From Sphingopyxis sp. (GTDB lineage: Bacteria > Pseudomonadota > Alphaproteobacteria > Sphingomonadales > Sphingomonadaceae), in assembly GCA_030148985.1 (NCBI GenBank), contig JASBSJ010000082.1, positions 1,558 through 65,557 on the forward strand: a stretch of 64,000 bases of DNA, given 5' to 3'. This document shows positions 2-63,855 of this stretch, in pieces (the stretch's first letter is position 1; every line of letters begins with the position of its first letter). The position numbers were made by a program, and so were the translations under genes. The notes under the pieces are model-generated. The model did not search any database. It was given only the letters and a program-made list of their open reading frames with translations, and was not told the DNA's origin.

Positions 2-202
2 GATTATATGATCGGTGGCTTTTTCGACCGCTATTCGCCCGTCTGGGGCGAGGCCGAGATCGCGTGGTTCGAGCTGGTGGTCGAGGAAGACGACGTCGAC
101 ATCATGGCATGGGCGCTCGGCACCGCCGCACCGCCCGCGCATCTCGACCGGCCCGAACTGATCGCGGCGATGCGCCGGCTGGACTATATCCCGCTGCCAT
201 GA
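2..202 (+). CDS. sdhE: Succinate dehydrogenase assembly factor 2 (SdhE/Sdh5 family), 5'-truncated by the window edge
   Basis: Frame is open from base 2 (DYMIGGFFDRY...EEDDVDIMAWALG). The stop overlaps the mfd ATG (ATGA, 199-202). sdhE-mfd is the usual alphaproteobacterial order. Confidence 0.75.
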   Translation, partial: DYMIGGFFDRYSPVWGEAEIAWFELVVEEDDVDIMAWALGTAAPPAHLDRPELIAAMRRLDYIPLP

Positions 203-3200
203 CCCAAAGCGCTGCCGACATATCTGCCGCGATCGCATCGTCCGCGGCGCCGCTGACGCTGGCGCGCGCCGCTGACGGCTTCCTGCCGCTGCTGCTCGCC
301 GACTTGGCGCGCGCGAGCGACAAAAGGCTGGTCTATGTCGCGACCGACGACGCCGCGATGCAGGCGATTGCCGACGCCGCGCCCTTCTTTGCCCCCGACC
401 TTGTCGTTCATCGCTTCCCGGCGTGGGACTGCCTTCCTTACGACCGTGCGGGGCCGTCGATGCGCGTCAGCGCCGACCGGCTGGCGACGCTCTCCGCCTT
501 GCAGGCGCCGCCGAAACGCGGCGAACTGATCCTGACCACCGTCGCTGCGATCACGCAGCGCACGCTCACCCCCTTCCGCATCCGCCAGCTCGCGACGACG
601 CTGGCCCCCGGTCAGCGGATCGACCGCGACGCGCTTGCCGAGCTGCTCGTCGCCAATGGGTTCAGCCGCGTCGATACCGTCGCCGACCAGGGCGAATTTG
701 CTGTGCGCGGCGGCCTGCTCGACCTGTTTCCCGCGGGTGAGGAGACGGGGCTGCGCGTCGATTTTTTCGGCGACGAGATCGAAAGCATCCGCCGCTTCGA
801 CCCCGCCGACCAGCGCAGTCTGGGGCCCGCCAAGGCGCTGCAACTGCTCCCCGCGTCCGAAACTTTGCTCGACGAGGCGACGATCAAGCGGTTTCGCTCG
901 GCCTATCGCGAATTGTTCGGCGCGCAGGGGACCGGCGATCCGCTGTATCAGGCGGTCAGCGACGGGCGGCGGCAGGCGGGCATGGACCATTGGCTGCCGC
1001 TGTTCGAGGAGCGGATGGCGACCCTGTTCGACCATGTCGACCCTGCGACGCCGGTGCTGCGCGGCCACCGCACCGACGCGACGGCGGAGACGCGCTTTGC
1101 CGCGATCGCCGACTATCATGCGAATCGCGTCGCCGCCGAGCGCGAATCACCGGGCAGCTATCGCCCGCTCGCGCCCGAAGCGCTGTATCTGACCGAGGCC
1201 GAGTGGGGCACCGCCGCGTCGGGCCGCCCGATCCATGTCGTCACGCCTTTCGACGTCCCGCCATCGGCAACGGTCGTCGATCTCGAAACCTTTGCCGCGC
1301 GCGACTTCACGCCCGAGCGCGCCGCCGACCTCAACGTCTATCACAAGGTCGCCGACCATCTGTCGGACGAACGCCGCAAGGGGCGCCGCACGATCATCGC
1401 CAGCTATTCGGGCGGCGCGCGCGAACGCCTGTCCGGACTGCTCCGCGACCATGGCGTGACCTCGCTGGTGCAGGTCGATACGTGGCAAGAGGCGCTGGGT
1501 TCAAGTTCCGCTCGTGTCGAGCGAAGTCGAGACACCCCGCAGGAAAGCGCTACCCCGACGAGTGTCTCGACTTCGCTCGACACGAACGGGAATAAAGGTG
1601 CGGCGGGAACGAGCACGGTGGCGATGGTCGTCCTCCCCCTCGACCATGGCTTTGCGTCCGACGCGATCAGTCTCCTCACCGAGCAGGACATCCTCGGCGA
1701 ACGCCTCGTCCGGCGGCAGAAGCGCCGCAAGAGCGCCGACGCCTTCCTCGCCGAGCTGGCGACGCTCAGCGTCGGCGATTTGGTGGTCCATCTCGACCAT
1801 GGCATCGGCCGCTATGAGGGACTGACCTCAATCCCCGTCGGGAACAGCCCGCATGATTGCGTCGCGCTGACCTATGCGGGCGGCGACAAGCTTTACGTTC
1901 CGGTCGAAAATCTCGACGTCCTCTCGCGCTATGGCGGCGAGAGCGACGGCGTCGCGCTCGACAAATTGGGCGGCGAGGCATGGCAGCGGCGCAAGGCGCG
2001 GATGAAGGAGCGCATCCGCGAGATTGCGGGCGAGTTGCTCGCGACCGCGGCGCAGCGCGCGCTGCGCTCGGGCGAATTGCTCGCGGCCGATGCAGCTTAT
2101 CCGGCGTTCGCCGACCGCTTCCCCTATCAGGAAACCGACGATCAGGACCGCGCGATCGGCGACGTGCTCGCCGACATGGCGTCGGGGCGGCCGATGGACC
2201 GGCTGGTGTGCGGCGATGTCGGGTTCGGCAAGACCGAGGTCGCACTGCGCGCCGCCTTTGTTGCGGCGATGGCGGGGGTGCAGGTCGCGGTGGTGGTGCC
2301 GACGACCTTGCTCGCGCGCCAGCATTTCACCAATTTCGCCGAACGCTTTAAAGGCTTCCCGGTCAATATCGGCCGCCTGTCGCGCCTCGTCCCCGCCGGC
2401 GAGGCGCAGCGAACGCGCGACGGGCTGGCGAGCGGACAGATCGACATCGTCGTCGGCACCCATGCGGTGATCGCCAAATCGGTCGAGTTCAAAAACCTCG
2501 GCCTCGTCATCGTCGATGAAGAACAGCGTTTCGGCGTGGTCCACAAGGAGCGGCTGAAGCAGCTGAAAGCCGACGTCCACGTCCTCACCCTCACCGCGAC
2601 GCCGATCCCGCGCACCTTGCAAATGGCGATGTCTGGGCTGCGCGAACTCAGCGTCATCCAGACACCGCCGGTCGATCGCCTCGCGGTGCGCACTTATGTG
2701 GCGCCGTGGGATCCGGTCGTCCTGCGCGAAGCCTTGCTGCGCGAACATGACCGCGGCGGGCAGAGTTTCTTCGTCGTCCCGCGGATCAAGGATCTGCCCG
2801 ACATCGAGGAATTTTTGCGCAACCGCGTGCCCGAAATCAAATATGTCGTCGCGCATGGCCAGATGACCCCGACCGAGGTCGAGGACCGGATGAGCGCCTT
2901 TTACGACCGCAAATATGATGTGCTGCTGTCGACGACGATCGTCGAGTCCGGCCTCGACATTCCCAGTGCCAACACGCTGATCATCCACCGCGCCGACCGC
3001 TTCGGCCTCGCGCAGCTGTACCAGCTGCGCGGGCGCGTCGGGCGCGCGAAAACGCGCGCTTACGCCTATCTCACCACCCCCGAACATGGCGCGATCACCG
3101 ACACCGCCGAAAAACGGCTCAAGCTGCTCGGCGATCTCGACACATTGGGTGCAGGCTTCCAGCTCGCGAGCCACGACCTCGACATTCGCGGCGCGGGTAA

Positions 3201-3783
3201 TCTCGTCGGCGACGAGCAGTCGGGGCATATCCGCGAAGTCGGCTTCGAACTGTATCAGTCGATGCTGGAAGAGGCGATCCTGATGGCCAAGGCCGAAGGC
3301 GCGGGCAAGCTGCCACCGCGTGAAGCCTTGTCACCGACGATCACCGTCGACGCGCCGATCCTGATCCCCGAAGATTATGTCCCCGACCTGCCGCTGCGCA
3401 TGGCGCTCTATCGCCGCCTCAACGATGCCGAGGACCGCGCCGCGCTCGACGCCTTCGCCGCCGAGATGATCGATCGCTTCGGCCCGCTGCCGCCCGAAAC
3501 CGCGAACCTGGTGCAGCTGATGGAAATCAAGGCGAACGCCCGGATCGCGGGCATCGCCAAGCTCGACGTCGGCACCAAGGGCGCGCTCGTCAGCTTCCAC
3601 GGCGACCAGTTCGCCAACGTCCCCGGCCTGATCGCCTATGTCGAACGGCTGAAAGGCCGCGCGCGGCTGCGCCCCGACAACAAACTGTCGGTCAGCGGCG
3701 ACTGGACGAGCACCGGCGCGCGCCTGAATGGCGCTTTGCAGCTGTCAAAAGGGTTGGGGAAGCTCGCGAAACAGGCCACCTAA
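199..3783 (+). CDS. mfd: Transcription-repair coupling factor Mfd
   Basis: UvrB-like N-terminus (GEFAVRGGLLDLFP), RID (VVHLDHGIGRYEG), helicase motifs GDVGFGKTE, DEEQRFG, TATPIPRT and QLRGRVGR, and a TRCF C-terminus. Start taken at ATG 199 rather than the ORF-track start at 64. Confidence 0.97.
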   Translation: MTQSAADISAAIASSAAPLTLARAADGFLPLLLADLARASDKRLVYVATDDAAMQAIADAAPFFAPDLVVHRFPAWDCLPYDRAGPSMRVSADRLATLSALQAPPKRGELILTTVAAITQRTLTPFRIRQLATTLAPGQRIDRDALAELLVANGFSRVDTVADQGEFAVRGGLLDLFPAGEETGLRVDFFGDEIESIRRFDPADQRSLGPAKALQLLPASETLLDEATIKRFRSAYRELFGAQGTGDPLYQAVSDGRRQAGMDHWLPLFEERMATLFDHVDPATPVLRGHRTDATAETRFAAIADYHANRVAAERESPGSYRPLAPEALYLTEAEWGTAASGRPIHVVTPFDVPPSATVVDLETFAARDFTPERAADLNVYHKVADHLSDERRKGRRTIIASYSGGARERLSGLLRDHGVTSLVQVDTWQEALGSSSARVERSRDTPQESATPTSVSTSLDTNGNKGAAGTSTVAMVVLPLDHGFASDAISLLTEQDILGERLVRRQKRRKSADAFLAELATLSVGDLVVHLDHGIGRYEGLTSIPVGNSPHDCVALTYAGGDKLYVPVENLDVLSRYGGESDGVALDKLGGEAWQRRKARMKERIREIAGELLATAAQRALRSGELLAADAAYPAFADRFPYQETDDQDRAIGDVLADMASGRPMDRLVCGDVGFGKTEVALRAAFVAAMAGVQVAVVVPTTLLARQHFTNFAERFKGFPVNIGRLSRLVPAGEAQRTRDGLASGQIDIVVGTHAVIAKSVEFKNLGLVIVDEEQRFGVVHKERLKQLKADVHVLTLTATPIPRTLQMAMSGLRELSVIQTPPVDRLAVRTYVAPWDPVVLREALLREHDRGGQSFFVVPRIKDLPDIEEFLRNRVPEIKYVVAHGQMTPTEVEDRMSAFYDRKYDVLLSTTIVESGLDIPSANTLIIHRADRFGLAQLYQLRGRVGRAKTRAYAYLTTPEHGAITDTAEKRLKLLGDLDTLGAGFQLASHDLDIRGAGNLVGDEQSGHIREVGFELYQSMLEEAILMAKAEGAGKLPPREALSPTITVDAPILIPEDYVPDLPLRMALYRRLNDAEDRAALDAFAAEMIDRFGPLPPETANLVQLMEIKANARIAGIAKLDVGTKGALVSFHGDQFANVPGLIAYVERLKGRARLRPDNKLSVSGDWTSTGARLNGALQLSKGLGKLAKQAT
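1508..1589. repeat. Palindromic repeat element (family A) inserted in frame inside mfd
   Basis: Arms CCGCTCGTGTCGAGCGAAGTCGAGACAC (1508-1535) and GTGTCTCGACTTCGCTCGACACGAACGG (1562-1589) are complementary at 27/28 positions. A second copy lies at 63777-63855. Confidence 0.9.
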
Positions 3784-3787
3784 ACCA

Positions 3788-3915
3788 CGCCCTCCCCTTC
3801 AGGGGAGGGCAGCGAGACTTGGCAGCTTGCTGCCTAGTCGCAGCGGGTGGGGTCCATCGGCCTTGCGCAAGGCCGATGGACCCCACCCCAACCCCTCCCC
3901 TGAAGGGGAGGGGCG
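3788..3915. repeat. Multi-hairpin palindromic repeat element (family B) between convergent mfd and EAL genes
   Basis: Terminal hairpins GCCCTCCCCTTCAGGGGAGGGC (3789-3810) and CCCCTCCCCTGAAGGGGAGGGG (3892-3913) are inverted copies of each other. An internal perfect 44-bp palindrome lies at 3845-3888. Confidence 0.85.
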
Positions 3916-56578: not shown

Positions 56579-56587
56579 GCAAAAAAA

Positions 56588-56677
56588 CGTCGCCCCCGCG
56601 AAGGCGGGGGCCGCTGTCAGCCTTGCCCTTCATCACCGCGTAAACCTCCAGCGGCCCCCGCCTTCGCGGGGGCGACG
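56588..56677. repeat. 90-bp REP-doublet-like palindromic element (family C), copy 1
   Basis: Perfect 29-bp inverted arms CGTCGCCCCCGCGAAGGCGGGGGCCGCTG around a 32-bp spacer. Confidence 0.9.
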
Positions 56678-62761: not shown

Positions 62762-63115
62762 ATGCAGAGCGAAAACCGCTTTTTCGACGACCTGGCCAAG
62801 ATGGTGAACGGCATCGCCGGAACCGTCGCCGGCGCCGGCCGCGAGGCCGAAGCCGCGATGCGCGACCGCGCCAAGGAATTTGTCGGCCGCATGGATTTCG
62901 TCAGCCGCGAGGAATTCGAGGCGGTGAAGCAGATGGCTGCCACCGCGCGCGCCGAAGCCGAAGCACTGAAGGCCCGCCTCGACAAGCTGGAAGGCGTGGC
63001 GAAGGCTGCTGCCAAGCCTGCGGCTGCGGCGCCGAAAGCGGCTGCCAAGCCTGCCGCTGCGACCAAGTCCGCGACGAAGCCTGCCGCGAAGCCGAAAGCA
63101 GCACCCAAGGCGTAA
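62762..63115 (+). CDS. ubiK: Accessory factor UbiK (BMFP) family protein with Ala/Lys/Pro-rich tail
   Basis: FFDDLAK, MDFVSREEFEAVK, LKARLDKLE. Confidence 0.85.
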   Translation: MQSENRFFDDLAKMVNGIAGTVAGAGREAEAAMRDRAKEFVGRMDFVSREEFEAVKQMAATARAEAEALKARLDKLEGVAKAAAKPAAAAPKAAAKPAAATKSATKPAAKPKAAPKA

Positions 63116-63116
63116 T

Positions 63117-63206
63117 CGTCGCCCCCGCGAAGGCGGGGGCCGCTGTCGGTTTACTTGGCGGCGCAGGAAAAGGCCGATGGCGGCCCCCGCCTCCGCGGGG
63201 GCGACG
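63117..63206. repeat. 90-bp REP-doublet-like palindromic element (family C), copy 2
   Basis: The left arm is identical to copy 1. The spacer matches the reverse complement of the copy 1 spacer at about 21/32. Confidence 0.9.
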
Positions 63207-63256
63207 TTTTGCGTCGATGACTCGCCACCCGACCAAACACTCGCTAAAGCGCGCCT

Positions 63257-63763
63257 ATGAGTGACGATATTTACGAAGACGACGACGGTCAGGACGCGGC
63301 GCCGATGGACATGCTCGCCTCCTATTTCGCTGCGCACGACTGGCCGCACGAAATGGTCGGCGAGGATGAGATTGTCGCAACCGCGCAGGGCAGCTGGACG
63401 ACCTATGAACTACGCGCGGTGTGGCGCGCCGACGACGGTGTGATCCAGCTCCTCGCCTTTCCCGACATCCGCGTCGTCGAGGACAAGCGCGCCGTCGCGC
63501 ACGAGGCGCTGGCGATGATCAACGAGCAGCTGTGGCTCGGCCATTTCGAGCTCTGGTCGAACAGCGGCACGATCCTCTATCGCCACGGGATGCTGCTCGG
63601 CGCCGACGCCGCGCTGCCGCTCGACCTTACCGAGACGCTCGTCGAAAGCGCGATCGACGAATGCGAGCGCTTTTACCCGGTGTTCCAGTTCGTGCTGTGG
63701 GGCGGCAAGACCCCCGCCGAAGCGCTCGCCGCCTCGCTCATCGAAACGCGCGGCGAGGCTTAA
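63257..63763 (+). CDS. YbjN domain protein
   Basis: GSWTTYEL, INEQLWLGHFELW, ECERFYPVFQFVLWGGK, ETRGEA; located after ubiK. Confidence 0.85.
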   Translation: MSDDIYEDDDGQDAAPMDMLASYFAAHDWPHEMVGEDEIVATAQGSWTTYELRAVWRADDGVIQLLAFPDIRVVEDKRAVAHEALAMINEQLWLGHFELWSNSGTILYRHGMLLGADAALPLDLTETLVESAIDECERFYPVFQFVLWGGKTPAEALAASLIETRGEA

Positions 63764-63776
63764 CGCTCCCCATAAT

Positions 63777-63855
63777 CCGTTCGTGTCAAGCGAAGTCGAG
63801 ACACGCTGACATCGAGCATGGCCTCCCGTGTCTCGACTTCGCTCGACACGAACGG
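63777..63855. repeat. Palindromic repeat element (family A), intergenic copy
   Basis: CCGTTCGTGTCAAGCGAAGTCGAGACACG-N21-CGTGTCTCGACTTCGCTCGACACGAACGG; arms nearly identical to the copy in mfd. Confidence 0.9.

Follow-up and report, generated by a model that had tools for sequence, protein, structure and literature searches.

How does a palindromic repeat come to lie in frame within a conserved DNA repair gene, and what becomes of the site afterwards? The question is raised by mfd in a stretch of 64,000 nucleotides from Sphingopyxis sp. (contig JASBSJ010000082.1; hereafter the window, from an assembly that we call the source genome). The answer that we consider probable is that a loop in domain D3 of Mfd serves as a slot which is repeatedly overwritten by an active, nuclease-linked repeat family and passed between species by short-tract recombination, and that the peptide encoded there by the repeat of the window would be unstructured and near-neutral.

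A palindrome within domain D3 of Mfd

The gene occupies positions 199..3783 of the plus strand as one uninterrupted open frame encoding 1194 amino acids, and its product is identified as the transcription-repair coupling factor by Pfam and by a predicted model that matches E. coli Mfd (2EYQ) with a TM score of 0.73. Inside this frame, arm matching and folding delimit an 82-nt palindromic element at 1508..1589, here called family A, which in the direction of mfd (plus strand) is made up of a left arm of 28 nt (1508..1535), a variable spacer of 26 nt (1536..1561) and a right arm of 28 nt (1562..1589). The arms are complementary at 27 of 28 positions, in agreement with the first-pass annotation of the window, which had described an inverted repeat with 28-bp arms in an unbroken mfd frame. 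Each arm by itself forms a short, imperfect hairpin, and the family A element thus amounts to a head-to-head dimer. On both strands the whole element folds into a single hairpin (-55.4 and -68.9 kcal/mol; z-scores -9.7 and -12.4), and none of 200 shuffled sequences folded as well.

In the protein, the peptide ARVERSRDTPQESATPTSVSTSLDTNG (residues 438-464) lies within a variable loop of 40 residues (435-474; 120 nt, 1501..1620 on the plus strand), which was delimited by alignment, Pfam and the structure model, is bounded by WQEALG and AMVVLPLDHGF, and has a pyrimidine-rich left and a purine-rich right flank in the DNA. Its shorter counterpart in most congeners is a loop of 10 residues. The filled allele cannot be described as a short loop with an addition, since 120 nt take the place of 30 without a clean junction. 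The Pfam MFD_D3 match spans the site in a short-loop ortholog (residues 397-467) and ends at residue 435 in the Mfd of the window, and the insert therefore interrupts domain D3, approximately 50 residues ahead of the RNAP-interaction domain (523-578), and does not lie just before the latter as first described. The AlphaFold2 model (86 sequences, mean pLDDT 81) presents residues 436-470 as coil with pLDDT values below 50, which may partly stem from the scarcity of aligned homologs, between a well-predicted helix (429-433) and a strand (474-478); the original placement in a loop agrees with this unstructured stretch.

The second family A copy of the window, delimited in the same way, lies outside genes at 63777..63855 (79 nt, with 29-nt arms and a 21-nt spacer), starting 13 nt past the stop of the open reading frame 63257-63763. 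Its minus strand translates as PVRVERSRDT...VSTSLDTNG, in agreement with the first-pass annotation, which had described this copy as near-identical to the one in mfd apart from the spacer. In the source genome the arm pattern has 60 matches against 0 for the reversed control pattern, and its abundance is therefore no chance product. With up to six mismatches allowed, the assembly (73% complete) yields 69 arm matches in 39 elements, 27 of them two-armed and 69-83 nt long. Further genomic copies, as anticipated for a dispersed repeat, are thus plentiful, and a codon-usage test of both flanks places a single one of the 39 in frame in mid-gene, the mfd copy, against 38 others. The arm is present in 23 of 24 genomes of the genus and in none of 16 genomes of other families, with the reversed control at 0 in both sets, and 5 of 7 genomes of other genera of the family have 1-6 matches each. 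Target duplications of 2, 3, 4 and 5 nt were seen at 0, 1, 0 and 0 of 27 family A copies, respectively, and the flanks are 76% pyrimidine on the left and 65% purine on the right. The arm is free of stop codons in all six reading frames, which would ease in-frame survival.

An Rfam search gave nothing above gathering score (only a generic hairpin match, 26 bits vs 100), and a conserved RNA family was rejected on this ground. Three family A copies of the source genome (C23:21648, C40:79738 and C52:3130) are traversed by an open frame that continues into the beginning of the gene downstream. The window also holds a palindromic repeat of another family directly after the mfd stop (3790-3915) and two CGTC-type dimers (56584-56677 and 63114-63210).

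Loop states and flanks in related bacteria

A genus-wide search matched mfd in 134 of 136 genomes, three of them weakly. The loop sequence was read in 60 congeners, and among these 60, which were chosen to include every apparent long allele and are hence enriched for filled ones, we found family A in 15, a variant of A in 1, another palindrome (family B) in 18, a deletion remnant in 3 and the short loop in 23. The other 71 congeners gave split matches as expected of the short allele, and the state counts cover the 60 read genomes only. Three alleles of the A class are broken by contig ends within the palindrome and one contains a run of N. The family B palindrome is without relation to A and is read in three frame combinations. 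Intact filled loops measure 114-138 nt (38-46 aa), and the B loop of G099 (116 nt) has a frameshift in an assembly that is 87% complete, likely a sequencing error. In the B loops of two genomes (L045 in G078, L047 in G133) an extra palindrome of 24 nt is nested, with the frame kept.

Among 120 listed homologous proteins, 13 have the A loop, 29 the B loop and 76 the short loop, while 2 could not be parsed. The named Mfd homologs are from Sphingopyxis, and the best of them, 98% identical over the region and named S. alaskensis Mfd, has the same insert. An assembly artefact was rejected on account of the presence of this insert in 15 genomes and 13 of the 120 listed homologs, the S. alaskensis protein among them. 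Conversely, the 23 short-loop congeners and 76 short-loop proteins show that the segment is by no means carried by all orthologs. Outside the genus, a long loop is found in 2 of 117 matched family members, both with B-like palindromes at the same site and both from other genera; an Mfd from another genus (L207 in G209) has a slightly long loop with RKREG, possibly the remnant of a family B arm. Of 150 listed distant Mfd representatives, 41 could be parsed, and all 41 lack a long loop, their anchors being separated by 44-55 residues vs 82 here, and comparison with the outgroups indicates that the short loop is ancestral. The many copies and the uneven distribution among orthologs support the initial suggestion of a mobile repeat, mobility itself being read from the distribution. 

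Of four RNA-library contigs compared with the site, two reach it, both from relatives and possibly derived from DNA: X3 spans the site and has a half-arm allele resembling the one in G081, while X10 extends from mfd sequence upstream as far as the left arm. These contigs are no proof of expression, and each of 24 RNA-library runs contained less than 0.2 of the sought words.

Repeats in frame are also seen in other genes. In carA (C62:4853-4946 in the source genome, L083; also L106) family B lies in frame in a loop, which across 14 loci has 8-12 aa in 11, 37 aa in 2 (in different frames) and 24 aa in 1. A CGTC-type dimer is in frame in a gene at C19:12241-12316 of the source genome, presumably that of pyruvate dehydrogenase E1 beta, and another in-gene repeat is found at C33:15469-15590 in what we take to be a DNA ligase gene. 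A gene of the former class is listed for S. alaskensis in supplement 3 of PMC3733652.

Trees were constructed from rpoB (55 genomes) and from mfd minus the loop (60 genomes), with the source genome in the mfd tree only because its assembly is without rpoB. The loop states are interleaved on both trees, and well-supported sisters differ on both: G114 (A) from G098 and G100 (B), G007 (B) from G081 (half A), G019 (B) from G072 (short), G138 (B) from G009 (short), and G017 (short) from G074 and G005 (A). Parsimony counts 22 state changes on the rpoB tree and 21 on the mfd tree, compared with 26.3 and 29.7 for shuffled labels, so that the loop states carry some tree signal, yet change many times.

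The sequences next to the loop follow a different pattern from that of the species. When 29 filled and 16 short genomes were compared, the differentiation was 0.30, 0.46 and 0.38 in the three 30-nt intervals nearest the loop and at most 0.14 in the other 27. About 40 flanking bases track the loop state. In the window, flank comparison assigns to this class the upstream coding tract 1462..1500 (plus strand), which sorts filled from short loops across species, and the downstream codons 1621..1629 (plus strand), where the source genome has residues of the short-loop type and is a hybrid. At a silent site at -6, all 16 short alleles and 3 of the 30 alleles of filled type read CTC; residues also differ by state, for example at -30 nt (Q or L vs P) and -21 nt (T vs S/G). 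The A and B alleles have near-identical flanks next to the loop, and the three deletion remnants (G063, G050 and G081) have kept flanks of the filled type, unlike the short allele. Judged from these alignments, it is likely that A and B take each other's place on a single filled haplotype, and that short recombination tracts carry filled and short alleles from one species to another. In G017 the loop seems to have reverted to the short allele, and G130 together with a deep clade suggest that some independent insertions have occurred too. Ordinary recombination would produce tight flank linkage beside any old indel, and the linkage by itself is no demonstration of nuclease drive.

The same flanks bear on the rival explanation that survives best, namely that repeats insert independently in many places and that the Mfd loop is one of few coding sites where insertions are tolerated, with repeated insertion and loss instead of overwriting. 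Such plain tolerance would account for G130, in which B is accompanied by a short-type upstream flank as expected of a fresh insertion, for the inserts that have flanks of their own in two other genera and in a deep clade apart from the rest, for the similar short and long loops of carA (B in 2 of 14) and for the source genome having one mid-gene copy for each of three families plus two family B candidates, one of them doubtful. Independent insertions into the short allele would not, however, yield the single flank haplotype, silent sites included, that most A and B alleles share and that is unlike the short allele, nor remnants that retain filled-type flanks and differ from it. We regard tolerance without overwriting as unlikely.

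Constraint, nuclease partners and a proposed course of events

In ten A-carrying species, four-fold sites of downstream mfd diverge by 0.256, compared with 0.018 for those of the arms (about 10 sites) and 0.36 for those of the spacer (about 3 sites); residues differ at 0.02 in downstream mfd, 0.08 in the arms and 0.42 in the spacer. The arms are conserved at silent sites while the spacer residues drift, which places the constraint on DNA or RNA and not on the peptide; a functional peptide was rejected on the divergence of the spacer residues. All ten mfd copies tested have 0-2 arm mismatches, and the arms of copies outside genes are as conserved as those in mfd.

The silent-site conservation and nearly intact arms could also mean that the hairpin is retained because it serves the mfd mRNA or DNA, be it in pausing, in RNase processing, in stabilization of the upstream part or in tuning of the Mfd level, a role for which any strong hairpin would suffice and the families would be interchangeable. 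A and B are indeed both strong hairpins of similar loop length, and in-gene REPs favour repair genes according to PMC3733652. A host role is nevertheless rather improbable in our view, as the hairpin is absent from the site in most congeners and has been lost in three lineages, and as the equal conservation outside genes fits nuclease recognition or conversion without any role for the host. Selection of a longer D3 loop as protein, altering D3 movement, UvrA unmasking or the mutation rate with compensatory changes in neighbouring residues, would draw on the filled loops of 38-46 aa, the state-dependent flanking residues and the movement of D3 by about 47 Å on DNA binding, a proposed aid to unmasking of the UvrA site (PMC7385628), but is very improbable considering four unrelated peptides at the site, the 42% difference in spacer residues, the low-confidence coil of the model, silent sites that also sort with the state, and the lack of a long loop in all 41 parsable distant representatives. 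These readings and the one that we prefer are not fully exclusive.

Candidate enzymes for the preferred reading, repeated overwriting of a slot, were found beside the repeats. Five of 29 GIY-YIG loci from relatives carry A arms, all five between yqeY and dnaG. In 52 genomes, five of them picked for having A, this site holds a GIY-YIG gene with A in 18, a DUF559 gene with B in 27 and no nuclease in 7, with no case of cross pairing. All 18 GIY-YIG genes at the site, found in relatives and not in the source genome, have 3-4 A arms, and all 27 DUF559 genes upstream of dnaG are bracketed by B. The source genome itself (73% complete) has the DUF559-B form at dnaG, no A-flanked gene among 7 GIY-YIG matches and no match to RAYT (PF01797). 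The A-linked protein has a Pfam GIY-YIG match, and an NCBIfam search gave none.

Whichever family is commoner in a genome tends to be the one in its mfd loop. The median A/B repeat ratio is 2.4 in 15 A-loop genomes vs 0.58 in 18 B-loop genomes (p 0.002, overstated, as are the other p values, by the non-independence of kin and the enrichment of the 60 genomes for filled alleles), and A outnumbers B in 11 of 15 vs 6 of 18. The source genome is an exception, with A in the loop, yet B commoner (ratio 0.67). Total repeats have a median of 95 in filled genomes vs 31. The association of the loop family with the type of dnaG cassette was not significant (7 of 11 vs 4 of 15, p 0.11), and the idea that the cassette at dnaG sets the loop family was dropped.

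Several related arrangements were also seen. Six small GIY-YIG and two DUF559 genes of the source genome (on C42, C26 (two), C12, C45, C22, C62 and C46) are each flanked by hairpin repeats of their own kind. At L085, L086, L087 and L092, GIY-YIG domains are part of open frames of 370-425 codons that run through a repeat into a downstream domain, presumably of RNA methyltransferase type judging by resemblance. In DnaG of G017, G068 and G042 (L209:1330-2700, L210 and L211), an intein-like segment of about 320 aa that includes a LAGLIDADG domain interrupts the zinc finger behind residue 61 (Pfam: LAGLIDADG_3 above the cut-off, Intein_splicing below it), and dnaG gives split matches in G101, G096, G058 and G073 as well.

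The course of events that we propose would then be as follows. By analogy with Ssn nucleases and their own repeats, the A-linked GIY-YIG protein would bind and nick the A hairpin in single-stranded DNA, and repair of the nicks would copy or replace the repeat without target duplication, as may be imagined from Ssn (PMC11893778) and from REPIN overwriting (REPORTH preprint); more generally, each of the two small putative nucleases would recognize the hairpin of its own repeat family. In mfd only stop-free inserts with a length divisible by three would survive, in the tolerant D3 loop; a deletion between the arms could later remove the hairpin except for a remnant, and homologous recombination would move filled and short alleles between species. 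A bolder version, which we think less likely than not, is that selfish GIY-YIG/A and DUF559/B systems compete for the same fixed addresses, with cassettes replacing each other upstream of dnaG and gene-less repeats overwriting each other in frame in Mfd and, in the manner of a homing element, taking neighbouring codons with them. If this were true, such competition would exchange a whole protein loop of 40 residues for one of unrelated sequence, with neither a transposase nor a target duplication involved.

Relation to known repeat systems

Parts of the picture are already in print, namely palindromes in frame in repair genes (PMC3733652, PMC10969869) and changes of repeat type at fixed extragenic sites (10.1101/2024.10.14.618302, PMC3686654), and the insertion taken alone adds one more clear case of a palindrome giving rise to a new protein segment. 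In the open papers we found no report of the Mfd site, of a DUF559-repeat pairing or of an exchange between unrelated repeat families inside a coding loop. The Rickettsia palindromic elements (RPEs; Ogata et al. 2000, 2002, as summarized in PMC10969869), to which the first-pass annotation compared the repeat, likewise occur both between genes and in frame in housekeeping genes, where they add a peptide, and family A resembles them in lying in a conserved gene and being absent from orthologs. The comparison is apt as an analogy only; RPEs measure about 150 bp, and in R. conorii nearly half are in genes, whereas A measures 82 nt with 1 of 39 copies in mid-gene, and the summary in PMC10969869 names neither family swapping at one site nor a linked nuclease.

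Di Nocera et al. 2013 (PMC3733652) describe GTAG/CGTC REP dimers in frame in genes, often those of replication and repair, with different REPs at about the same recB site in two Xanthomonas species and ten S. alaskensis genes, all listed with CGTC-1; mfd is absent from the main text and supplement 3. Family A differs from these dimers in having ends without the tag, the only matches being reverse ones inside the spacer at 1550 and 1557. A shares with MITEs the terminal inverted repeats without transposase coding, but not the target-site duplication. The triplex repeats BoxC, PIT and TMECO (Holder et al. 2015, PMC4666352, where the main text is without the word nuclease) may resemble family B only, in the layout of one C-rich and two G-rich blocks; TMECO is always intergenic in E. 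coli. This C/G/G pattern, written after viewing the sequences, fits 15 of 17 B loops, whereas the exact TMECO consensus of that paper fits 0 of 17.

Closer to the proposed mechanism are the Ssn nucleases (Chenal et al. 2025, PMC11893778) with their NTS/SRM repeats, of which NTS are rarely found in genes (2%). Both systems have a small GIY-YIG gene of a single domain with a dispersed hairpin repeat on either side, in our case in relatives and not in the source genome, but the published SRM motif has no match in either window copy of A, and the A-linked protein is a putative nuclease.

Domain D3, the mobility of which is described in PMC7385628 and PMC13453472, is the least understood domain of Mfd, and natural long and short alleles of it exist. 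The comparative series at this one coding site combines a short allele with half and full deletions and with two unrelated inserts that occur in several frames, each with its candidate nuclease, and comes from cultivable bacteria; it bears on whether in-gene repeats alter the activity of repair genes, a speculation raised in PMC3733652. It also bears on the spread and mutual replacement of REP-like repeats without RAYT. Family A has the layout of a REPIN, with two inverted short hairpin units, a variable spacer and many copies, 38 of 39 outside mid-gene positions. REPORTH (10.1101/2024.10.14.618302) describes fixed positions that keep a repeat while its type follows the predominant system, 13 of 20 conserved spaces being mixed, and PMC3686654 calls the change of repeat type at fixed extragenic sites an 'orthoswitch'. 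In those accounts the sites are extragenic, the partners are all RAYTs (HUH) and the REPs are related, whereas the Mfd site is a coding loop, A and B are unrelated, and their partners are GIY-YIG and DUF559 proteins in place of a cognate RAYT.
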